Assembly: GCF_988243305.1 (NCBI RefSeq)
Contig: NZ_OZ547136.1
Direction: 5' to 3' (one strand)
Length of the DNA: 64,000 bases
Shown here: positions 1 to 10,181 of the stretch, piece by piece
Layout: each line of letters begins with the position of its first letter
Position numbering within the stretch: the stretch's first letter is position 1
Notes under the pieces: generated by a model
The model's input: only the letters and a program-made list of their open reading frames with translations
Database searches by the model: none
What the model was told of the DNA's origin: nothing
Made by a program: the position numbers and the translations under genes

Positions 1-520
1 TCTGATGCAGATTTCAGAAGAGGATTGCCTTGCGCGTATTGCCGAATCCATCAACATTGCGCTGGATAAAACTCATGGTGTGACAGCGGTGATTGAAAAC
101 ACCGCCGGTCAGGGCAGTAACTTAGGGTTTAAATTCGAACATCTCGCGGCGATTATCGACGGCGTTGAAGATAAATCCCGCGTCGGCGTCTGCATTGATA
201 CCTGCCATGCTTTCGCTGCCGGGTATGATTTGCGTACTCCAGCCGAATGCGAGAAAACGTTCGCGGATTTTGCCCGTATTGTCGGCTTTAAGTATCTGCG
301 CGGGATGCACCTTAACGATGCGAAAAGCACCTTTGGCAGCCGCGTTGACCGCCATCATAGCCTCGGTGAAGGCAATATCGGTCATGATGCGTTCCGCTGG
401 ATCATGCAGGACGACCGTTTCGACGGCATTCCGCTGATCCTTGAAACCATCAACCCGGATATCTGGGCAGAAGAGATCGCCTGGCTGAAAGCGCAACAAA
501 CTGAAAAAGCGGTAGCCTGA
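1..520 (+). CDS. nfo: Endonuclease IV (AP endonuclease), 3' portion; gene starts upstream of the window
   Basis: ORF track 5..520 begins at an internal Met; translation matches the Nfo C-terminal region; position immediately before yeiI. Confidence 0.85.
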
Positions 521-522
521 AG

Positions 523-1611
523 ATGAACAACCGGGAGAAGGAGATCCTTGCAATTTTACGGCGTAACCCGCTGATTCAGCAGAACGAAATTGCGGATATG
601 CTGCAAATCAGCCGTTCGCGCGTTGCGGCGCATATTATGGATTTAATGCGCAAAGGCCGGATTAAAGGCAAAGGTTACATTCTCACCGAGCAGGAATACT
701 GCGTAGTGGTGGGGACAATCAATATGGATATTCGCGGGATGGCGGATATCCGTTACCCGCAAGCGGCTTCTCATCCCGGTACCATTCATTGCTCGGCAGG
801 CGGCGTTGGACGCAATATCGCCCACAATCTGGCGCTGTTAGGCCGCGACGTCCATTTGCTTTCAGTGATTGGCGATGACTTTTATGGCGAAATGCTCCTG
901 GAAGAAACGCGCCGCGCCGGCGTGAATGTCTCCGGCTGCGTTCGTTTACATGGCCAAAGCACATCGACGTATCTGGCAATTGCCGATCGAGACGATCAAA
1001 TCGTGCTGGCGATTAACGATACCCATCTGCTGGATCAGTTGACACCGCAACTACTGAACGGGTCGCGCGATTTACTTCGTCATGCGGGCGTGGTACTGGC
1101 TGATTGCAACCTGACAGCCGAGGCGCTGGAGTGGGTCTTTACCCTCGCTGATGAAATCCCGGTGTTTGTCGATACCGTTTCAGAATTCAAAGCGGGCAAA
1201 ATCAAACACTGGCTGGCGCATATTCACACCCTGAAACCCACTTTACCGGAGCTGGAAATTTTATGGGGACAGGCGATCACCAGCGATGCTGACCGTAATG
1301 CCGCAGTGAATGCGTTGCATCAGCAAGGCGTTCAGCAACTGTTTGTTTATTTGCCCGATGAGTCTGTTTATTGCAGCGAAAAGGATGGAGAACAATTTTT
1401 GCTGACAGCGCCAGCGCATACGACAGTAGACAGTTTTGGTGCTGACGATGGTTTTATGGCGGGCCTGGTATATAGCTTTCTGGAGGGAAACAATTTCCGT
1501 GACAGCGCCCGTTTTGCGATGGCCTGCGCGGCAATTTCACGCGCCAGCGGCAGCTTAAACAACCCTACCCTGTCTGCCGATAATGCGCTGTCATTAGTGC
1601 CAATGGTGTAA
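523..1611 (+). CDS. yeiI: Putative sugar/nucleoside kinase with N-terminal winged-HTH domain (PfkB family)
   Basis: 362-aa ORF; N-terminal HTH followed by a PfkB kinase domain with a GGVGRNIA motif that is also present in PsuK in this window. Confidence 0.85.
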   Translation: MNNREKEILAILRRNPLIQQNEIADMLQISRSRVAAHIMDLMRKGRIKGKGYILTEQEYCVVVGTINMDIRGMADIRYPQAASHPGTIHCSAGGVGRNIAHNLALLGRDVHLLSVIGDDFYGEMLLEETRRAGVNVSGCVRLHGQSTSTYLAIADRDDQIVLAINDTHLLDQLTPQLLNGSRDLLRHAGVVLADCNLTAEALEWVFTLADEIPVFVDTVSEFKAGKIKHWLAHIHTLKPTLPELEILWGQAITSDADRNAAVNALHQQGVQQLFVYLPDESVYCSEKDGEQFLLTAPAHTTVDSFGADDGFMAGLVYSFLEGNNFRDSARFAMACAAISRASGSLNNPTLSADNALSLVPMV

Positions 1612-1617
1612 CAATGT

Positions 1618-1652
1618 TGCCGGATTCGACGCTTGACCGCATCTAATCCGGC
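1618..1652. repeat. REP-like palindromic unit (GCCGGAT...ATCCGGC)
   Basis: Inverted repeat gccggatt / aatccggc in the yeiI-nupX convergent gap. Confidence 0.5.
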
Positions 1653-1666
1653 TCATAAATTGCACA

Positions 1667-2917
1667 CTACGCTAAACCAATAAAGAACCCGGCAATGGTG
1701 GCACTCATCAGATTAGAAAGTGTCGCCGCCGCCAGCGCGCGTAAACCAAGCTGGGCGATTTCCGGCGCACGGTGTGGCGCAACCGCAGAAAACGCCCCCA
1801 CCACCACCCCGATAGAACCAAAGTTAGCGAAACCGCACAACGCGAAAGAAATAATCGCCACGGTTTTAGCATCCAGAGTGCCAGCTGTTTGCAGATAAGG
1901 TGAGAAATTGAGGTAAGCGACAAATTCATTAATCGCCAGTTTCTGTCCAATCAAACTCCCGGCAAGATTCGCATCACTCCAGTCAACCCCCATCACCCAC
2001 GCCAGCGGGGCCAGCAGGTAACCTAAAATGGACTCCAGCGAGGCATGTTCAAAACCAAACCAGCCGCCAACGCCGCCGATAATACCGTTAATTAACGCAA
2101 TGATGGCGACAAATGCCATCACTACTGTCGCCACACCTGCGGCGATTTTCAGCCCGGTCATTGCCCCTGTAGCGGCGGCTTCAATAATGCTTTTTGGCGG
2201 TGTTTCGGTGAAAGAGAGGTTATTAAAGGAAACCTGCGAAGATTCGGTAGCCGGGCTTAACAGGCGGGCAAACAAGATCCCGCCAGGGATCGCCATTAAC
2301 GATGCCGCCAGCAGATATTCCACAGGCACGCCCAGTGCAGCGTAACCAATCATTGTCGAACCAGCAATCGAGGCCATGCCACTACAAATCGCTGTAAATA
2401 ATTCATTGCGATTCAGCCGATCGATAAAGGGTTTGACGATTGCCGGAATTTCGTTTTGCCCGAGGAAAATGGTAGTGACCGCGACGAATGACTCGATCTT
2501 GCTGATATTTAATGCTTTCTGGAAGATACCGCCGAGAATGCGAATTAAGATCCCCATCACACCGATGTAGTAGAGAATACTCACCAGTGCTGTAACGAAG
2601 ATAATTGCCGGTAATACCCTGAAACCAAAGATAAATCCTGCGCCATCAAATAAGGTATCCATTTTCGGTCCGACCAGAGAACCAAAGATAAATGCGCTAC
2701 CTGCATCGCTGTACGCCATCACTTTATGCACGCCAAAAGCGACTTTTTCTGCGACCCAACGCCCTGGTGGTAACCAAAGCATAATGCCGCCAATCACGAC
2801 CTGTAACACTAACGCCGCGCCAACGGTACGCAGGCTGATCTTCTTCTTGTTTACTGACAGCAAAAACGCAATTGCCAGTAATACCACCATTCCCAGAACA
2901 CTTCTCATGACATCCAT
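1667..2917 (-). CDS. nupX: Nucleoside permease, concentrative nucleoside transporter (CNT) family
   Basis: 416-aa polytopic membrane ORF; close paralog of PsuT at 4855..6105 over the whole length. Confidence 0.9.
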   Translation of the reverse strand: MDVMRSVLGMVVLLAIAFLLSVNKKKISLRTVGAALVLQVVIGGIMLWLPPGRWVAEKVAFGVHKVMAYSDAGSAFIFGSLVGPKMDTLFDGAGFIFGFRVLPAIIFVTALVSILYYIGVMGILIRILGGIFQKALNISKIESFVAVTTIFLGQNEIPAIVKPFIDRLNRNELFTAICSGMASIAGSTMIGYAALGVPVEYLLAASLMAIPGGILFARLLSPATESSQVSFNNLSFTETPPKSIIEAAATGAMTGLKIAAGVATVVMAFVAIIALINGIIGGVGGWFGFEHASLESILGYLLAPLAWVMGVDWSDANLAGSLIGQKLAINEFVAYLNFSPYLQTAGTLDAKTVAIISFALCGFANFGSIGVVVGAFSAVAPHRAPEIAQLGLRALAAATLSNLMSATIAGFFIGLA

Positions 2918-2942
2918 AGTTATTATCTCTTCATGTCATTTT

Positions 2943-2970
2943 GGGCGACGGCTTTCTGCCCATCAGAAAT
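2943..2970 (-). other. Conserved 28-nt leader element, copy 1 (rihB-nupX gap)
   Basis: 27/28 identical to 6172..6199; on the minus-strand RNA it can form a 5-bp stem GAYGG/CCGTC with loop GCAGAAAG. Confidence 0.4.
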
Positions 2971-3016
2971 AGCCGGGCCTGCATCTTGCGATACTGTCCC
3001 GGCTTGTTATCAACAC

Positions 3017-3958
3017 TTAATGGGTTTTGATGTAGCCGCGCACGCACTCTTCGACTAATCCCCAGAACCAGTCGGTATCAATAGTGATGCCGACTTTGGT
3101 ATTGGCGGGCTTGCCAAGAACGCCCAGCTCGTCGCAGACGGTACGCCCATAGCAAGGGCCACTGTTAACGTCCACGTCGACGTACATCTCCTGGGTTTTA
3201 ATGCCATCAGGGTTAATCAGATAACCGATGCAGGTGGCGTCATGCACCGGGCCGCCAGCAAGGCCGTAGTTTTCGAACTGCGTTTTGAGAGTGAAGTTCA
3301 TGATGTCGCTGAACAGCTCTCCGGCGGGGCCGCCTGCCCTTTCCATCCGTGCAATCACGTCCGGGGTGCAAACGGTCTGGTTGGTGAGATCGAGGCCCAT
3401 CATCACTAATGGAACGCCGGAGGTGAACACCACGCGTGCCGCTTCCGGGTCAGCAAAGATGTTGAACTCGGCGGATGGCGTAAAGTTGCCAGTACCGTAA
3501 GCGCCGCCCATCAGCACAATTTCACGGATTTTCGGCAGGATCGCGGGTTGCATACGCATTGCCACCGCGATGTTTGAAAGTGGACCAACCGGCACCAGAG
3601 TGATATCGCCATCGCTTGCCATCAGGGTATCGATGATATATTTCACCGCATGAGTGCTTTCTGCCTGGCGGGTCAGCGGCCCGAATACCGGGCCATCAAG
3701 TCCGGTTTCACCGTGAATATTATCGGCAACGATTTGTTGACGCATAATGGGCTGTGGCATCCCCGCATAAACCGGAACATTAATCTCCAGTTTCTGGCAA
3801 ACATTCAGGCCATTAATTAATGTTTTATCGAGGGTTTGATTACCCGCTACAATGGTGATACCTAATAAATCTATTGCCGGATGTTTCGCTGCCATCATTA
3901 TTGCAATAGCATCATCATGACCCGGATCACAATCCAGGATAATTTTTCTTTTTTCCAT
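3017..3958 (-). CDS. rihB: Ribonucleoside hydrolase (pyrimidine-specific)
   Basis: 313-aa ORF with N-terminal DCDPGHDD nucleoside hydrolase signature. Confidence 0.9.
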
Positions 3959-4126
3959 TGTTTATTTCCTCTGTTTCCAGTTGCGTTATTTTTTCTACAG
4001 CAAAGAAAATTCGACCGGGCCGATGATTGAATCTTAACAACAGCGTACGTATGCTAAATATGAGAAATCTCATAGCGGATAAACATCGTGAAAGAAATCC
4101 ACAATAATGATCTTAAGCAGCAATTG

Positions 4127-4786
4127 ATGAGTGAATCAGCGTTTAAGGATTGCTTTTCAACGGATGTTTCAGCCGATACGCGGCTGTTTCATTTTTTAGC
4201 GCGTGACTACATTGTGAAGGAAGGGCAACAGCCGTCCTGGCTGTTTTACCTGACGCGAGGCCGCGCCAGGCTTTACGCCACGCTTGCTAATGGTCGCGTG
4301 TCGCTGATCGATTTCTTTGCCGCGCCCTGTTTTATTGGCGAGATTGAGTTAATCGATAAAGACCATGAACCGCGTGCGGTGCAGGCTATTGAAGAGTGTT
4401 GGTGTCTTGCGCTCCCTATGAAACATTACCGCCCGCTGTTATTAAACGACACACTATTTTTACGAAAACTCTGCGTTAGTTTAAGCCATAAAAATTATCG
4501 CAATATTGTTTCTTTAACTCAGAATCAATCATTTCCGTTAGTGAATCGCCTGGCAGCTTTTATATTACTCTCACAAGAAGGTGATCTTTATCACGAAAAG
4601 CATACGCAAGCGGCAGAGTATTTAGGCGTTTCTTATCGACATCTTTTATATGTTCTCGCGCAATTCATTCACGACGGTTTATTAATTAAAAGCAAGAAAG
4701 GATATCTAATTAAAAACAGAAAGCAGTTGTCAGGACTGGCGCTGGAGATGGACCCGGAGAATAAATTCTCCGGGATGATGCAGTAA
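4127..4786 (+). CDS. yeiL: CRP/FNR-family transcriptional regulator
   Basis: ORF track starts at GTG 4088 (232 aa); ATG at 4127 gives the 219-aa form I recall for YeiL. Start is uncertain. Confidence 0.8.
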
Positions 4787-4807
4787 AAAATAATCTGCAA
4801 TAGCACG

Positions 4808-4848
4808 ATTGCCGGATGTGACGCTTAATAAGCGCGTACATCCGGCAA
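4808..4848. repeat. REP-like palindromic unit
   Basis: Inverted repeat tgccggatgt...acatccggca in the yeiL-psuT convergent gap. Confidence 0.5.
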
Positions 4849-4854
4849 TGACAC

Positions 4855-6105
4855 TCAAGCTAAACCAATAAAGAACCCGGCAATGGTCGCGCTCATCAGG
4901 TTGGAAAGCGTTGCTGCTGCCAGCGCCCTTAAACCAAGCTGAGCGATTTCCGGAGCACGTTTTGGCGAAATAGCCGAAAATGCCCCAACGACAACACCGA
5001 TAGAACCAAAGTTAGCAAAACCACAAAGCGCAAAGGAGATAATCGCAATGGTTTTCACTTCCAGCGTGCCGCCCGTTTGCAGGTATGGGGAGAAACTCAG
5101 GTAAGCGACGAATTCGTTAATCGCCAGTTTCTGCCCAATCAGGCTACCCGCAAGGTTGGCATCACTCCAGTCCACACCCATGATCCACGCCAGCGGTGCC
5201 AGCACATAGCCAAAAATACTTTCCAGAGAGGCATTGGCGAAACCAAACCAGCCGCCAATTCCGCCGATAATGCCGTTGATCAGCGCAATAATTGCGACAA
5301 ACGCCATTACCACCGTCGCTACACCAGCGGCGATTTTCAGCCCGGTCATCGCACCGCTCGCCGCCGCTTCGATAAAGCTTTTTGGCGGCGTTTCGCTGAA
5401 CGACAGATTTTCAAATGTCACCTGCGAAGGCTCGGTGGCTGGGCTAAGAATACGTGCAAACAAAATACCACCAGGGATCGCCATCAGCGATGCCGCTAAC
5501 AGGTAGTCAATTGGTACGCCCATTCCGGCATAACCAATCATCATCGAACCAGCAATGGACGCCATCCCGCTACAAATTGCGGTAAACAACTCGTTGCGAT
5601 TCATGCGATCGATAAACGGTTTAACGATCGCAGGGATCTCATTTTGCCCGAGGAAAATAGTGGTAACCGCAACAAAAGATTCGATTTTGCTGATGTTGAG
5701 GGCTTTCTGGAAAATGCTGCCAAGGATGCGGATTAGCAGCCCCATCACGCCAATGTAGTACAGCAGGCTGATGAGCGCAGTGACGAAGATAATCGCCGGG
5801 AGTACGCGAAAGGCGAAGATAAAGCCCGCGCCATCAAACAGGACATCCATTTTCGGCCCGACCAATGAACCAAAAATAAAGGCACTACCGGCATCACTGT
5901 AAGACATCACTTTATGAACGCCTAATGCCGCCTGCTCTACCGCCCATTTTCCTGGTGGAAAATAGAGCATGATGCCGCCAATGGCGATTTGTAGCAGCAG
6001 CGCGGCTCCAACCGTGCGCAAACTGATGCTCTTTTTATTCACTGACAACAAAAATGCTATTGCCAGTAACACCACCATCCCCACAACACTTCTCATTATA
6101 TCCAT
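4855..6105 (-). CDS. psuT: Pseudouridine/nucleoside transporter (CNT family)
   Basis: 416-aa ORF paralogous to nupX; last gene of the psuK-psuG-psuT operon. Confidence 0.9.
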   Translation of the reverse strand: MDIMRSVVGMVVLLAIAFLLSVNKKSISLRTVGAALLLQIAIGGIMLYFPPGKWAVEQAALGVHKVMSYSDAGSAFIFGSLVGPKMDVLFDGAGFIFAFRVLPAIIFVTALISLLYYIGVMGLLIRILGSIFQKALNISKIESFVAVTTIFLGQNEIPAIVKPFIDRMNRNELFTAICSGMASIAGSMMIGYAGMGVPIDYLLAASLMAIPGGILFARILSPATEPSQVTFENLSFSETPPKSFIEAAASGAMTGLKIAAGVATVVMAFVAIIALINGIIGGIGGWFGFANASLESIFGYVLAPLAWIMGVDWSDANLAGSLIGQKLAINEFVAYLSFSPYLQTGGTLEVKTIAIISFALCGFANFGSIGVVVGAFSAISPKRAPEIAQLGLRALAAATLSNLMSATIAGFFIGLA

Positions 6106-6171
6106 AATGATTTTCCCTTCATGCCAGTAAACCCGGCGTCAGCGCCAGGTTTTGGTATGTATGATCAGTAC

Positions 6172-6199
6172 GGGCGACGGCTTTCTGCCCGTCAGAAAT
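6172..6199 (-). other. Conserved 28-nt leader element, copy 2 (psuG-psuT gap, overlaps psuG stop by 1 nt)
   Basis: 27/28 identical to 2943..2970. Confidence 0.4.
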
Positions 6200-7137
6200 T
6201 AACCCGCGAGACGCTGGTATTCTTTGGCAATTTCACTCGCCAGAATGGCGTTGTTGAACACCAGTTGGATGTTGGATTTCAGGCTGTCACCGCCAGTCAG
6301 TTCAGCAACACGAGCCAGCAGGAACGGTGTGCTTTCTTTACCAATAACGCCCTGCTCTTCGGCTTCGGCAACGGCTTGATCTATGGCTGCATTGATAGAT
6401 TCCTCCGGCATCGCAAACTGTTCCGGGATCGGATTTGCCACCACCAGGCCACCGTTCAGCCCGCTTTGCCATTTCACCGCCATTGCATGGGCAATTTCAC
6501 TGGCGCTGTCGAGACGAATACTGACGTCAAACGGGCTGGTACGGCAGAAAAACGCAGGCAGCGCTTTGGTCTGATAGCCAATTAACGGCACACCGAAGGT
6601 TTCTAAATACTCAGTGGTTAATCCTAAATCGAGAATAGATTTCGCCCCGGCACAAACAACGGTGACATTAGTATTTGCCAGTTCTTGCAAATCGGCAGAA
6701 ATATCGAAGGTATGTTCCGCCCCGCGATGCACACCACCAATTCCCCCTGTGGCAAATACTTTAATTCCGGCAAGCGCCGCAATAATCATCGTTGAAGCAA
6801 CGGTAGTTGCGCCATTTTTTCCGGCGGCAACAACAAAAGGTAAATCGCGACGACTAACTTTGGTCACGTTATGCCCTTCACGACCCAGCAATTCAATTTC
6901 TTCTTTGCTTAAACCCACTTTCATCACGCCGCCAATAATGGCGATAGTGGCAGGTACAGCGCCCTGTTTACGAATAGTTTCTTCAACTTCAATTGCGGTC
7001 TGGGCATTTTGTGGGAACGGCATCCCGTGAGAAATAATGGTCGATTCCAGCGCCACAACCGGTTTTTTGTTTTTTAAAGCGTCCTGCACTTCCGGGGAAA
7101 TTTGTAATAATTCAGGGGAAATTTTTAATTCAGACAT
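6199..7137 (-). CDS. psuG: Pseudouridine-5'-phosphate glycosidase
   Basis: 312-aa ORF matching the PsuG/YeiN family; overlaps psuK by 13 nt. Confidence 0.9.
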   Translation of the reverse strand: MSELKISPELLQISPEVQDALKNKKPVVALESTIISHGMPFPQNAQTAIEVEETIRKQGAVPATIAIIGGVMKVGLSKEEIELLGREGHNVTKVSRRDLPFVVAAGKNGATTVASTMIIAALAGIKVFATGGIGGVHRGAEHTFDISADLQELANTNVTVVCAGAKSILDLGLTTEYLETFGVPLIGYQTKALPAFFCRTSPFDVSIRLDSASEIAHAMAVKWQSGLNGGLVVANPIPEQFAMPEESINAAIDQAVAEAEEQGVIGKESTPFLLARVAELTGGDSLKSNIQLVFNNAILASEIAKEYQRLAG

Positions 7138-8066
7138 TCTGCGTTCTCCACTAACGATATAACGTTGGCAATCGATAAATCGGGGTTATTGGTGTATTCA
7201 CAGGAGAGCGCCATTGACGAACATCCCTGTGCGAAACGAACAGATTCGGCAAACGGCATTCCGTCTACCCAACACGAAGCAAGCCCCGCCATCATGGCAT
7301 CGCCCGCTCCGGTAACATTAATAACATTGGTTTTGATCGGCGCAGACCAGCCACTTTCACCGCTGATATCACTGTAATAAACGCCATCGCCGCCCATGCT
7401 CAATACCAGTCGGTTCAGGCCATGTTGATGGAACCAGGCAGCAACTTTTGCCACATCTTCACGCCCTGACAGCGCAATCCCACTCAGGGTTTCCGCTTCA
7501 AGGCGGTTTGGCTTGAGAGTGTGGATTTGATTTAGACGGTCGCGCACTTTGACACATTTCCATGCGGAAACCGGATCGACAAATACGGGTACGTTGGCGG
7601 CATTATCCAGAATCCATGCCAGTGCCTCTTCACTGATATTACAGTCTGCGACAATGACCTTTGCCCTCTGAATAAATTCACGGTGCTGTGCGAGATATTC
7701 AGCTGTAATAGCGTTGCTAATATTCATGTCATTTATAGCAACCAGCATTTCACCGGTATTATCGAGTAATGATAAATAGCTTGACGTATTTTCTCCCGGC
7801 ACAATCAGGCATTTATCGACATAAACGCCAGATTGATTGGTTTGCGTTAGCAGCGATTGACCATAAAAATCACTGCCTACGGCGCTCAGTAGCCAGGCTT
7901 TGTTCTCCAGCAACGCCAGGTTTTGTGCAATATTGCGCCCGACTCCACCAGGCGTAAATTTTATTTTACCTGGATTTGAATCCGCATAATTTAATGATTC
8001 ATGTGAATATCCGGCGACATCAATATTCGCCGAACCTATAATTACGACATAATCCTTTTCGCGCAT
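7125..8066 (-). CDS. psuK: Pseudouridine kinase (PfkB family)
   Basis: 313-aa ORF with PfkB motifs GGVGRNIA and GAGD; first gene of the psu operon. Confidence 0.9.
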   Translation of the reverse strand: MREKDYVVIIGSANIDVAGYSHESLNYADSNPGKIKFTPGGVGRNIAQNLALLENKAWLLSAVGSDFYGQSLLTQTNQSGVYVDKCLIVPGENTSSYLSLLDNTGEMLVAINDMNISNAITAEYLAQHREFIQRAKVIVADCNISEEALAWILDNAANVPVFVDPVSAWKCVKVRDRLNQIHTLKPNRLEAETLSGIALSGREDVAKVAAWFHQHGLNRLVLSMGGDGVYYSDISGESGWSAPIKTNVINVTGAGDAMMAGLASCWVDGMPFAESVRFAQGCSSMALSCEYTNNPDLSIANVISLVENAECLN

Positions 8067-8133
8067 AGCACGTCCTCTGGTAAAAAATTACCACCCCTGT
8101 CAATCCACAAGAATATTGATACTGCAAAGACGG

Positions 8134-8169
8134 TTTAAACATGTGTTCATATTTAAACATGTGCTCATA
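8134..8169 (-). promoter_or_regulatory. Tandem 18-bp direct repeat in psuK promoter region (candidate operator)
   Basis: tttaaacatgtgttcata followed directly by tttaaacatgtgctcata (17/18), 68-103 nt upstream of the psuK ATG. Confidence 0.4.
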
Positions 8170-8304
8170 GTATGCATGTTTTACGTAAAGTAAATTACCG
8201 CCAGAGAGGCAAAATGGGCAGATTTGAGCAGGCTCACAAAACGCGATTAAATGCCTGAATTATAAAAACGGGGAATTTGTGACGGGATGCACAGAACAGG
8301 AACA

Positions 8305-8334
8305 ATAAAAAAGGGCAGAAATTAATCTGCCCTT
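8305..8334 (-). terminator. Intrinsic terminator downstream of fruA
   Basis: 9-bp perfect stem AAGGGCAGA/TCTGCCCTT followed on the minus strand by a T run. A second hairpin with no clear U tract lies at 8452..8476. Confidence 0.6.
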
Positions 8335-8489
8335 GAGGAAATAACCTTAGTGTTTGATGAAGGTTTCAGGTTTCTACTAAAAGATAAAACCATTTAAATT
8401 CATAAAATTACATTCACAAACCGGTCATTCTCTTTGCGCGCATCAAATGTTACAGGGCAGGAAATTTCTGCCCTGTAACACACCTTTTA

Positions 8490-10181
8490 TTACGCTGCTT
8501 TCGCTACTGCGTCCACTTCCGGACGTTTCAGGAAGGCATAGGCCAGACCCGCCACCAGCGTACCGGCAATAATGGCTACCAGGTAACCCAATACCGGCGT
8601 AATCGCGCCAGGGATCAGCAGAACAAACAGACCACCGTGCGGTGCCATCAGTTTCGCACCAATCGCCATTGAGATTGCGCCAGTCAGCGCCCCACCCACG
8701 ATACAGCACGGCAGCACACGCATCGGATCACGGGCAGCAAACGGAATTGCACCTTCCGAAATAAAGCACAGTCCCAGTACCAGAGCGGCTTTGCCCCCTT
8801 CCTGCTGCGCTTTGTCGAATTTGCGACGCGCCACCATTGTTGCCAGGCCCATTGCCAGCGGTGGCACCATACCTGCCGCCATAATCGCCGCCATCGGGCC
8901 ATAGGTTTGAGTACTCAGCAGACCCACACCGAACGCGTACGCTGCTTTGTTTACCGGACCGCCCATGTCAGTACACATCATGCCACCGAGGATCGCCCCC
9001 AGCAGAACCGCATTCGCAGTCCCCATGGTCTGCAGCCAGTGAGTCAACCCTTCGAGAATGCCAGCAACCGGTTTACCGATCAGATAGATCATCGCCAGAC
9101 CGACCACCAGACTGGAAATTAGCGGAATGATCAGAATCGGTTTCAGCGCCTCCATACTCTGCGGCAGTTTCAATTGCGTACTGATTAACTTCGCAATGTA
9201 ACCAGCCAGGAAGCCCGCAATAATACCGCCAATGAAGCCAGAACCGGTGCTGACCGCCAGCATACCGCCAATCAGACCCGGCGTGAGACCCGGACGATCG
9301 GCAATGGAAAAGGCAATATAACCTGCCAGTACCGGCACCATCAACGCAAAGGCTGAACCACCACCAATCTGCATCAGCGCCGCAGCCAACGTACCCGGCT
9401 CTTTAAACGCTTCGATACCAAAAGCAAAAGAAAGCGCGATACACAGACCACCTGCAACGACCATCGGCAGCATGTAAGAGACGCCCGTCAGCAAGTGACG
9501 GTAAGCGCCTGCACTCTCTTTCTTACCTTCAGTGGTCGCTGTTTGAGTTTTGCCCGCCGGTTCATACGGCGTTGCTTCAGCAACCGCTTTATCCAGTTCC
9601 TGCGCGGTTTTCTTCAGCGCCAGACCGGTAGAGGTGCGATACATCGGTTTACCAGCAAATTTCGCCAGATCCACTTCAATATCTGCCGCCACAATCACCA
9701 GATCCGCTGCGGCTACTTCTTCAGGGGTGATTGCATTACCCGCGCCAACCGAACCACGGGTTTCAACTTTCACCCACCAGCCACGTTTTTTCGCTTCGGT
9801 TTCAATGGCTTCAGCCGCCATAAAGGTGTGTGCTACGCCAGTCGGGCAAGCAGTCACCGCAACTACGCGTTTCGGACCGCTGGCGGCAACCGGTGCTGTC
9901 GCAGCGACCGGCGCAGTGTAAGGTTTCGCATGGCCTTTGGCTTCACTCAGGAACAGCTCAGGGTGCGCAACTGCCCGGGAAATATCGCCCAGCCAGACAT
10001 TTTTACCGTTCAGCGCGCTGTCGTTCGGGATGGAATCACCGAGAACAATCGCCATTTCAGCGTCGTTCGGATTGTCGATGATTTCCAGTTTTGCTTTTCG
10101 CGCCGCCGCGCCCAGCAGGGTCTTCGCCATATAGGCGCGTGCCTGACCGAGATTAGCGTCAATAATCAGCAGCGTTTTCAT
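8490..10181 (-). CDS. fruA: PTS fructose-specific EIIB'BC component
   Basis: 563-aa ORF with polytopic C-terminal domain; operon fruB-fruK-fruA. Confidence 0.95.
   Translation of the reverse strand: MKTLLIIDANLGQARAYMAKTLLGAAARKAKLEIIDNPNDAEMAIVLGDSIPNDSALNGKNVWLGDISRAVAHPELFLSEAKGHAKPYTAPVAATAPVAASGPKRVVAVTACPTGVAHTFMAAEAIETEAKKRGWWVKVETRGSVGAGNAITPEEVAAADLVIVAADIEVDLAKFAGKPMYRTSTGLALKKTAQELDKAVAEATPYEPAGKTQTATTEGKKESAGAYRHLLTGVSYMLPMVVAGGLCIALSFAFGIEAFKEPGTLAAALMQIGGGSAFALMVPVLAGYIAFSIADRPGLTPGLIGGMLAVSTGSGFIGGIIAGFLAGYIAKLISTQLKLPQSMEALKPILIIPLISSLVVGLAMIYLIGKPVAGILEGLTHWLQTMGTANAVLLGAILGGMMCTDMGGPVNKAAYAFGVGLLSTQTYGPMAAIMAAGMVPPLAMGLATMVARRKFDKAQQEGGKAALVLGLCFISEGAIPFAARDPMRVLPCCIVGGALTGAISMAIGAKLMAPHGGLFVLLIPGAITPVLGYLVAIIAGTLVAGLAYAFLKRPEVDAVAKAA

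Follow-up and report, generated by a model that had tools for sequence, protein, structure and literature searches.

Enzyme folds serve as the ligand sensors of transcription factors such as BirA, NadR and PutA, and the repressors Mlc and NagC stand in this relation to the ROK sugar kinases. In yeast, a bifunctional galactokinase and co-inducer was reportedly duplicated into the enzyme GAL1 and a catalytically dead sensor, GAL3. Here, we analyze a stretch of 64,000 nucleotides (NCBI RefSeq assembly GCF_988243305.1, contig NZ_OZ547136.1; hereafter the window), the first 12 kb of which are the Escherichia coli yei locus and match 5425 of 5426 complete E. coli genomes (99.1% for the best match), and we focus on YeiI, a protein of this locus in which an N-terminal helix-turn-helix (HTH) precedes a PfkB kinase domain. 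We propose, at a probability of roughly 0.6 for the explanation as a whole, that the locus holds two independent pyrimidine-nucleoside salvage units that were made neighbors by insertion and are not parallel copies of one design, and that YeiI would be a non-catalytic pseudouridine-sensing regulator of one unit, psuK-psuG-psuT (psuKGT), while YeiL would control the other, rihB-nupX.

YeiI can be compared with both described types of system. The likeness to GAL1/GAL3 lies in a bifunctional ancestor that persists in relatives and in two copies, of which one is catalytic and the other would keep ligand binding and be regulatory only. By contrast, Gal3 acts via contact with Gal80 and needs ATP, whereas YeiI has its own DNA-binding domain and has lost the ATP motifs, and the case for YeiI comes from sequence. 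With Mlc and NagC, YeiI shares an N-terminal HTH fused to a kinase-like fold that would sense a pathway metabolite and control the pathway operon; however, the fold of Mlc and NagC is ROK/ASKHA and that of YeiI is PfkB. A GAL1/GAL3-style split, in which YeiI is a dead PfkB "pseudokinase" transcription factor with a Ser30/Asn143/Lys170 pocket and ligand-driven release of its DNA sites, and in which a leader element is confined to psuT and nupX, has in our estimate an even chance of being correct. In the searchable literature, we found no described PfkB-derived pseudokinase regulator.

RefSeq names the genes across the locus nfo, yeiI, nupX, rihB, yeiL, psuT, psuG, psuK and fruA. In this order, nfo-yeiI converges on the rihB-nupX unit, and yeiL, divergent from rihB, converges on psuKGT (Table 1). 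PsuK and PsuG are the characterized pseudouridine kinase and glycosidase, both with solved crystal structures, and contain a PfkB and an Indigoidine_A domain, respectively. RihB (IU_nuc_hydro, PF01156, E 3e-98), in which the N-terminal DxDxxxDD Ca2+/ribose motif is present as DCDPGHDD, is a characterized CU-nucleosidase that prefers cytidine and uridine and for which kinetics are published; it has been described as "physiologically silent" in the laboratory, yet it is induced by autoinducer-2-conditioned medium. YeiL is the third known CRP/FNR member of E. coli and has been tied to post-exponential nitrogen starvation; it contains a cNMP_binding and a C-terminal HTH_Crp_2 domain (Pfam), scores 418 bits against the NCBIfam model of the YeiL subfamily (cut-off 180) and is labeled "transcriptional activator YeiL" by RefSeq. 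An earlier note on this DNA, made from its letters, had recognized these genes, two minus-strand units each ending in a transporter, a CRP/FNR regulator between the units and the lack of an assigned function for yeiI. The open reading frames (ORFs), which were recovered at the very positions given in the note, the domains and the RefSeq names agree with this description, and YeiI is still "uncharacterized" in PMC9061257 (2022) and PMC12506659 (2025). While the gene content of the region is already annotated and the paralogy of the transporters already published, the regulatory assignments at the yei locus are offered here as new predictions.

Gene order links yeiI to psuKGT and yeiL to rihB-nupX

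We annotated loci around NupX/PsuT relatives with the proteins of the window; the sample of genomes in this study is small, at about 20 loci. First, E. albertii, Leclercia and three Citrobacter species have fruA ahead of psuK-psuG-psuT and, immediately after psuT, convergent yeiI and nfo, while nupX, rihB and yeiL are lacking. Second, the same convergent arrangement of yeiI and psuT-psuG-psuK without rihB, nupX or yeiL is present in "Enterobacter lignolyticus", one Enterobacter and Affinibrenneria; in Affinibrenneria, yeiI lies beside psuT-psuG-psuK although even the nfo flank differs. Third, yeiL divergent from rihB and a gene for a concentrative nucleoside transporter (CNT) occurs alone, far from psu genes or yeiI, in Superficieibacter and Hafnia. 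Among the other taxa examined, the full two-unit arrangement of E. coli was found only in C. amalonaticus. These gene orders point to yeiI as the partner of psuKGT and to yeiL as the partner of rihB-nupX. The nfo stop codon lies 2 nt ahead of the yeiI ATG, and yeiI is therefore probably co-transcribed with nfo; the nfo-yeiI adjacency is maintained in eight other taxa.

The earlier note had instead set yeiI and rihB-nupX in parallel to psuKGT as a second salvage module in which YeiI would be a kinase, and perhaps a regulator, for a different and possibly modified nucleoside. The adjacency of yeiI, nupX and rihB in E. coli and C. amalonaticus fits this grouping; however, yeiI adjoins psuT-psuG-psuK without rihB, nupX and yeiL in the eight other genera or species listed above, and rihB-nupX is present without yeiI in two taxa. 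Because yeiI lies beside psuKGT without these genes and yeiL-rihB-CNT stands alone elsewhere, the proposed second module mixes two units. The two modules are also not co-conserved, and the yeiL-rihB-nupX segment is unstable even among E. coli strains: about 990 of 5430 E. coli records (~18%) have no nupX-grade match, and in E. coli A26, the one such strain examined, rihB, yeiL, yeiI and psuKGT are all intact. In this strain, what is left of nupX is a remnant in which the first ~66 nt are fused to the last ~45 nt (locus L098, 14148-14260). Moreover, a hydrolase frees base and ribose, so that a nucleoside kinase is not needed in a pathway built on RihB. Thus, of the two parallel modules, the pair of transporter-terminated minus-strand units stands, whereas their parallelism does not, as the units are neither co-conserved nor built alike. 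Together with the evidence on YeiI motifs and operator positions given below, we consider a second nucleoside-kinase module very improbable.

A trace of how the two units may have come together was found in E. albertii. The end of its psuT gene (GCG TAG) and the adjoining yeiI spacer match those of E. coli nupX and not those of E. coli psuT (window 1612-1669 and 4787-4857 compared with E. albertii locus L006 at about 3440-3520). We read this match as the likely footprint of recombination between the paralogous transporter genes when a cassette was inserted or deleted. One crossover between homologous transporter genes would integrate a circular yeiL-rihB-nupX segment or, in reverse, delete it, and the yeiL-rihB-nupX cassette that lies between yeiI and psuT probably entered by recombination of this type.

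YeiI keeps the pseudouridine pocket but has degenerate ATP/phosphoryl-transfer motifs

YeiI contains an HTH_24 domain (residues 1-48, E 1e-10) and a PfkB domain (PF00294, residues 58-348, E 3e-67), and is 40% identical to PsuK over 307 aa (E 2e-77). These results bear out the paralogy of the two proteins, the added N-terminal HTH of YeiI and the common GGVGRNIA sequence, all of which the earlier note had pointed out. The AlphaFold2 (AF2) model of YeiI (predicted local distance difference test score 87) superimposes on E. coli pseudouridine kinase (EcPUKI, 7vtd) with a template modeling score of 0.94 and a root-mean-square deviation of 2.3 Å, and has a disordered substrate loop as in PsuK. Pfam and the model agree on a ribokinase-like alpha/beta fold with a beta-clasp lid, and in the model the winged HTH consists of three helices followed by a beta hairpin. 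A search of the PDB returned no solved HTH-PfkB structure.

Using the residue roles described for EcPUKI (PMC9061257), we compared YeiI and PsuK site by site. YeiI keeps the residues that bind ribose (N14 and D16) and those that contact the base (Y97 and N112), the pseudouridine hallmarks S30 (Ser or Thr at this site), N143 and K170 and the catalytic D256, and the GG motif (GGxGxN), present as GGVGRNIA, is invariant in the alignment of HTH-PfkB proteins and PsuK. By contrast, the NXXE motif for Mg2+/phosphate is changed at PsuK N187 to T (TLPE); the small ATP loop GXXG is missing, with G225-G-D-G228 of PsuK replaced by P-D-E-S; and the anion hole NVTGAGD reads DSFGADD, with G255 changed to D and the catalytic Asp retained. 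The K+ site is altered as well (N250 to D and T252 to F).

Several hundred HTH+PfkB proteins were obtained as relatives of YeiI and, when aligned with PsuK, split cleanly into two groups. Group A, from Yersinia, Serratia, Photorhabdus, Xenorhabdus, Erwinia, Pasteurella, Chelonobacter, Shewanella, Aliivibrio and Ferrimonas, keeps every PsuK motif. Group B is YeiI proper, from the Enterobacteriaceae genera examined and Affinibrenneria, and always occurs alongside a separate psuK without HTH. In a census of 101 full-length cluster representatives of these relatives, in which proteins with both N187 and G255 were counted as canonical, 48 were canonical, 53 degenerate and none mixed, i.e., all degenerate proteins lack both residues. 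Of the canonical proteins, 42/48 have GxxG, whereas 0/53 of the degenerate ones do; the latter read GADD in 48/53 cases and retain the S30/N143/K170 triad in 51/53.

In all seven group A loci examined, the HTH-PfkB protein is encoded by the first gene of an operon with psuG and, in some loci, a CNT gene, with overlapping stop and start codons. These operons, among them those of Yersinia, Serratia, Xenorhabdus, Pasteurella, Shewanella and Aliivibrio and annotated as "PfkB family carbohydrate kinase" or "pseudouridine kinase", resemble the E. coli system in the fusion of a winged HTH (57-74% identical to that of YeiI) to PfkB, the pseudouridine triad, tandem operator-like dyads (see below) and the downstream psuG and CNT genes. 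In these operons, NXXE, GXXG and GAGD are intact in the fused protein, which is the sole kinase encoded. E. coli differs in that these roles are split between an HTH-less PsuK and a YeiI with degenerate motifs, and in that yeiI lies outside the operon. Between groups A and B, identity is 57-74% for the HTH and 38-48% for the kinase domain. PsuK is 57-59% and YeiI 47-48% identical to the Yersinia HTH-PsuK, compared to 38% between PsuK and YeiI, in an identity table and a neighbor-joining tree that has no bootstrap support. Consistently, the NCBIfam equivalog for pseudouridine kinase (NF007355, cut-off 540) gives 713 bits for PsuK and 261 for YeiI, YeiI scores 810 bits against its own equivalog, NF007416 ("sugar kinase"), and the Yersinia HTH-PsuK scores between the two models. 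The simplest history would be the duplication of a bifunctional HTH-PsuK, after which the PsuK copy would have lost the HTH while the YeiI copy would have kept the HTH and the pseudouridine pocket and lost the ATP/phosphoryl-transfer motifs.

The motif states bear on two alternatives in which YeiI is an active kinase. For a kinase in a second module, the PfkB fold and the intact ribose/nucleoside pocket would be suitable; however, YeiI has lost NXXE, GXXG and GAGD and yet keeps the pseudouridine-specific triad, which makes a kinase for a different modified nucleoside, as the earlier note had envisaged, unlikely. Alternatively, YeiI could still be bifunctional like the Yersinia-type HTH-PsuK, i.e., an active kinase for pseudouridine or a related compound that has unusual motifs and is redundant with PsuK. 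An equivalent of Asp256 is present in about 49/53 YeiI proteins and the Glu of NXXE in 49/53, a machine-learning tool predicted EC 2.7.1.83, and purifying selection acts on the kinase domain throughout; with a ratio of nonsynonymous to synonymous divergence (dN/dS) of 0.07-0.08, yeiI is under strong purifying selection and is not decaying. Set against this are the loss of the three ATP/phosphate motifs in 53/53 members of the clade without intermediates, a score that falls short of the PsuK equivalog cut-off and the finding that a psuK mutant cannot use pseudouridine (Preumont 2008, as summarized in PMC12506659), from which it follows that YeiI does not substitute for PsuK. We consider a bifunctional YeiI improbable.

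The psuK promoter and its tandem candidate operators

The position of the psuK promoter follows from a recurrent mutation. In several independent studies of evolution in the mouse gut, a single-nucleotide polymorphism (SNP), 2257444 A>C, located between psuK and fruA, rises in at least nine independent mice; in the original papers, it is termed only "intergenic" or "promoter region" and is tied by the authors to altered psuK expression and growth differences. An A>C change somewhere in the psuK promoter also recurs in long-term stationary phase. After calibration of the old K-12 coordinates (NC_000913.2) on the atoS/atoC mutations in the same table (shift +1978), the gut SNP lands on window position 8192, which lies 126 nt ahead of the psuK ATG and is the third T of TTTACT; the mutated hexamer is TTGACT. 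This fixes the promoter, with its -35 hexamer, 16-nt spacer, -10 hexamer, dyads and CRP-like site. From the position of the SNP and the sequence, psuK-psuG-psuT appears to be read from a weak sigma-70 promoter (TTTACT/TACTAT).

Two copies of a dyad with the consensus (G/A)AACAnnTGTT(T/C), 18 bp apart, lie upstream of psuK and form the most conserved block in an alignment of ten Enterobacteriaceae psuK promoters. Matches of at least 9/10 are enriched 46-fold in psuK and HTH-psuK promoter regions, with 19 in 5.5 kb of these compared to 19 in 254 kb of the remaining locus sequence. The dyad is present in 15/16 promoters, including 6/6 of group A, and paired dyads 18-19 bp apart occur in ten loci from both groups. 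In Yersinia, Serratia, Pasteurella, Shewanella, Aliivibrio and locus L008, the tandem dyads directly precede the HTH-psuK start codon. In E. coli genomes, the psuK operator segment occurs only once, and within the window there are no dyad sites near rihB, yeiL, nupX or nfo; the lack of a dyad near rihB or nupX is a further point against a second module that includes YeiI. A third match in the window, at 23775, lies inside a coding ORF and was taken as chance. In E. coli, the dyads span and lie just downstream of the predicted psuK start, a position typical of repressor sites.

Additional observations were made in these regions. The operator dyads of Yersinia- and Serratia-type HTH-psuK double as the coding sequence for "MFKNKQVS", the N-terminal extension with which the protein is annotated (L083 7995-8030, L090 5995-6030, L008 7817-7846); translation probably begins at the ATG farther downstream (MTSREKQ...). 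Several group A operons, that of Xenorhabdus among them, have an extra dyad near -280 (L083 about 7753, L090 about 5715, L092 5716, L008 about 7559) that could permit DNA looping. A 9/10 match, AAACAGCTGTCT, lies outside the window in yeiH, ~380 nt upstream of nfo-yeiI (locus L096, 462-473), and is conserved in five species; this probably reflects conservation of the coding sequence, while an autoregulatory site could also be considered. The psuK 5' region and promoter exist as two diverged haplotypes in E. coli that are 81% identical (window 7800-8340 compared with A26, L098 8545-9270). The minority haplotype, present in 1201/5413 records, is E. albertii-like; both dyads are kept, and its core promoter (TTTACA/TATTAT) is the stronger one. 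Farther upstream, fruA is followed by two similar terminator-type hairpins of the form GGGCAGA...TCTGCCC (8311-8334, minus strand, and 8448-8480), and the ~150 nt between them are absent from the other genera examined.

YeiI as a candidate pseudouridine-responsive regulator

We suggest that the first unit, psuK-psuG-psuT, handles pseudouridine, with yeiI, encoded convergently after psuT, as the evolutionary partner of psuKGT. YeiI would bind the dyads through its HTH, most likely repressing psuKGT, and would be released upon binding pseudouridine. In the EcPUKI dimer, pseudouridine triggers a quaternary change that depends on Ser30 (PMC9061257), and a similar Ser30-dependent dimer movement could relay the pseudouridine signal in YeiI. 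Binding of DNA by YeiI, its ligand and the direction of control are what we infer here from the distribution of motifs, genes and sites.

Several observations weigh against this proposal. First, the Asp and Glu residues retained in most YeiI proteins mean that YeiI may have residual or altered catalysis. Second, a published list of E. coli transcription factors does not include YeiI. Third, the dyad motif was derived from group B promoters, which leaves the group A promoters as its sole semi-independent test. Fourth, in gut-evolution experiments the repressors frlR, srlR and dgoR collect many loss-of-function alleles, whereas up-regulation of psuK always occurs via the one -35 SNP, and the accessible part of the mutation tables includes no yeiI allele. 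This pattern is hard to square with a simple repressor whose loss is beneficial, and loss of YeiI may not equal psuK induction. Fifth, C. amalonaticus has the full two-unit locus, and the timing and direction of the proposed insertion are uncertain, with repeated loss as the alternative.

The same absence of yeiI alleles from the mutations listed, under conditions in which psuK expression is under selection, would be expected if the psuK dyads were bound by another transcription factor and YeiI regulated other targets (e.g., nfo or genes elsewhere) or acted as a sensor independently of DNA. Such an arrangement would also suit the position of yeiI in the nfo operon, and the link between YeiI and the dyads is a comparative one, the co-occurrence of tandem dyads with HTH-PfkB genes. 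However, in Enterobacterales, Pasteurellales, Alteromonadales and Vibrionales alike, the dyads go with HTH-PfkB proteins at an unchanged tandem spacing of 18-19 bp, no part of these proteins is conserved better than the HTH, and yeiI stays beside psuT even where the flanking genes all differ. We regard another factor at the dyads as rather unlikely. The assignment of YeiI to the dyads remains the best explanation, while repression and activation of psuKGT by YeiI stand at about even odds.

A candidate YeiL box upstream of rihB

The second unit would handle uridine and cytidine, with NupX importing these nucleosides and RihB splitting them into base and ribose. Between rihB and yeiL lies the perfect palindrome TATGAGAAATCTCATA, the only exact match to this sequence in the 64-kb window; within the window, YeiL-box-like sites are absent near the psu unit. 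The box is kept in C. amalonaticus, Hafnia and Superficieibacter, and is present as GTATGAGAATTCTCAC in Enterococcus. Its distance to a -10-like hexamer on the rihB strand (TAAGAT, TATGAT or TATGCT) is fixed in four enterobacterial genera. A center at about -42 is the classical class II position for activators of the CRP/FNR family. The predicted rihB promoter resembles class II CRP/FNR promoters in the domains of YeiL and in a 16-bp palindrome with arms of 5-7 bp at about -42, a distance set by the -10-like hexamer, and in the lack of a -35 element; the predicted YeiL half-site, (T)ATGAG, differs from those of FNR (TTGAT) and CRP (TGTGA). The position of the palindrome suggests that YeiL would act as a class II activator of rihB from this predicted box. 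Such activation would accord with the RefSeq label of YeiL and would explain, as a prediction, why rihB is silent unless YeiL is active. The GC-rich hairpin just after the rihB stop codon is possibly a partial terminator or a stabilizer.

In Enterococcus malodoratus (locus L093, 3924-6672), a YeiL homolog with about 59% identity to E. coli YeiL is encoded divergently from an operon for a nucleoside hydrolase, a PfkB kinase and Bmp/ABC uptake. The Enterococcus YeiL homologs are 58-60% identical to E. coli YeiL, and this pairing suggests that the regulator-hydrolase pair was transferred between phyla.

For RihB and NupX, affinities for uridine and cytidine are only mid-to-high micromolar or the efficiency is low, and structural biologists have proposed modified nucleosides as the true substrates. 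These properties would also accord with a second module for a modified nucleoside. Our analysis speaks neither for nor against a modified pyrimidine nucleoside as the true substrate of RihB and NupX.

NupX, PsuT and their shared leader element

NupX and PsuT, each of 416 aa, align without gaps and are identical at 368/416 positions (88%). The earlier note had estimated by eye ~85% identity over the first ~90 residues; the alignment gives 74/90 (82%) and confirms the paralogy, which far exceeds what chance would produce. Both proteins have the Nucleos_tra2_N, Gate and Nucleos_tra2_C domains and the nucleoside-binding motifs in HP1, TM4b, HP2 and TM7. NupX aligns end to end with vcCNT and CNT_NW, for which structures are solved (E 1e-131 to 1e-125), and shares these motifs with them, except that CNT_NW has GQTE where NupX and PsuT have GQNE. 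All four motifs are identical between E. coli NupX and PsuT, and the sequence therefore offers no basis for differing substrate ranges. Experimentally, uptake of uridine and cytidine by NupX was measured in 2024 at low efficiency, while PsuT took up no uridine, cytidine or xanthosine and pseudouridine is not among its reported substrates (PMC11241209). Thus, the view of the earlier note that nupX has no assigned substrate does not hold, and the published substrates of NupX are those of RihB.

At the DNA level, nupX and psuT are 79% identical, with 53% identity at third codon positions, a synonymous divergence (dS) of 1.27 and dN/dS of 0.06. Because third codon positions and dS have diverged to this extent and long identical tracts are absent, the duplication is old. 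A recent duplication or gene conversion in E. coli was rejected on the same dS and on sliding windows with a uniform identity of 68-84% and a longest identical run of 29 nt. In C. amalonaticus, nupX and psuT (locus L095, 3583-4833 and 6734-7984) are 94% identical with a dS of 0.47 compared to 1.27 in E. coli, which indicates partial gene conversion in that lineage. The NupX and PsuT proteins of the genera examined are 82-99% identical and all nest inside the Enterobacteriaceae PsuT clade, which makes NupX an offshoot of the PsuT lineage.

The leaders of the two genes share a conserved block that matches at 26/27 positions although the synonymous sites of both genes are saturated. Each of 5424 E. 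coli genomes has exactly two copies of it, and a dispersed repeat of the repetitive extragenic palindromic (REP) or boxC type was therefore rejected. Among 11 sequences from seven genera, the 5-bp stem YGGGC/GCCCR is paired in 55/55 cells; two pairs show compensatory double changes, with U.G wobbles on the sense strand, and 7 positions of the 11-nt loop are invariant. This covariation is modest for a small sample, as 16/500 shuffles reach the same level. Both leaders are predicted to be unusually structured (z-scores -2.8 and -3.4), and the second hairpin in the psuT leader has compensating changes in orthologs. The psuG-CNT spacers of group A and Affinibrenneria lack the element, and the Enterobacter locus has a degraded form of it.

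Other interpretations of the block were discarded. An upstream ORF is not shared, as the nupX copy has ATG and the psuT copy ACG. No relevant Rfam family was hit at E≤1 in window 1-9000, an alternative inner hairpin, GGC-AGAAA-GCC, is broken in 4/11 sequences, and the palindrome TTTCTG-N5-CAGAAA, considered as a protein operator, is not conserved outside E. coli. The block may act as a hairpin for processing or stabilization, or it may be bound by a post-transcriptional regulator common to both mRNAs; such an element could couple the two transporters post-transcriptionally.

Table 1. Genes and predicted regulatory features of the yei locus, in window coordinates
Feature	Position	Strand	Basis or remark
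nfo, 3' part (endonuclease IV)	5-520	+	ORF and RefSeq annotation
yeiI, winged HTH and PfkB	523-1611	+	ORF, Pfam
REP-like hairpin spacer between convergent yeiI and nupX	1612-1666	.	Homologous to E. albertii yeiI-psuT spacer
nupX, CNT nucleoside transporter, second gene of rihB-nupX	1667-2917	-	ORF, Pfam, alignment
Conserved leader block 5' of nupX (TTTCTGATGGGCAGAAAGCCGTCGCCC), hairpin UGGGC-loop-GCCCA	2943-2969	-	Alignment
GC-rich hairpin just after rihB stop	2972-3003	-	Sequence
rihB, Ca2+-dependent pyrimidine (cytidine/uridine) nucleoside hydrolase	3017-3958	-	ORF, Pfam, literature
Predicted rihB -10 hexamer TAAGAT	4031-4036	-	TATGAT or TATGCT in other genera, same distance from YeiL box
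Candidate YeiL box, perfect palindrome	4059-4074	.	About -42 from predicted rihB start, just upstream of yeiL
yeiL, CRP/FNR-family regulator divergent from rihB	4088-4786	+	K-12 annotated start at window 4127
psuT, CNT transporter, third gene of psuK-psuG-psuT	4855-6105	-	ORF, Pfam, alignment
Second psuT leader hairpin CCUGGCG-CUGA-CGCCGGG, then UUU, just upstream of psuT ribosome-binding site	6132-6149	-	
Conserved leader block 5' of psuT, starts right after psuG stop	6172-6198	-	Matches nupX block
psuG, pseudouridine-5'-phosphate glycosidase	6199-7137	-	ORF, RefSeq, Pfam
psuK, pseudouridine kinase without HTH, catalytic motifs all intact	7125-8066	-	ORF, Pfam, NCBIfam, motifs
Candidate operator dyad 2 (GAACACATGTTT)	8137-8148	-	About +13 to +24 from predicted start
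Candidate operator dyad 1 (GAGCACATGTTT)	8155-8166	-	Abuts -10 hexamer, spans predicted transcription start
psuK -10 hexamer TACTAT	8167-8172	-	16-nt spacer from -35
psuK -35 hexamer TTTACT	8189-8194	-	Recurrent SNP makes TTGACT
CRP-like site (TGTGAGCCTGCTCAAA)	8223-8238	-	Centered about -70.5, class I geometry; consensus match and conservation only
fruBKA intrinsic terminator	8311-8334	-	Upstream limit of psuK control region

Implications

Our analysis makes three new predictions: a pseudokinase-type sensor, YeiI, at the psuK dyads, a YeiL box that would drive rihB-nupX, and a hairpin common to the leaders of both transporter genes. It adds a concrete predicted function for yeiI, which databases and machine-learning tools label as a sugar or pseudouridine kinase. 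It also provides a regulatory map for a locus that is among the most repeatable targets of adaptation during colonization of the mouse gut by E. coli, and in which the recurrent SNP creates a consensus -35 hexamer next to a predicted operator. If the proposal is true, YeiI would offer a clean prokaryotic case of one enzyme-regulator giving rise to a separate enzyme and sensor. Because pseudouridine is now produced by fermentation for mRNA products, YeiI would in that case also be of practical interest as a natural switch that responds to this nucleoside.

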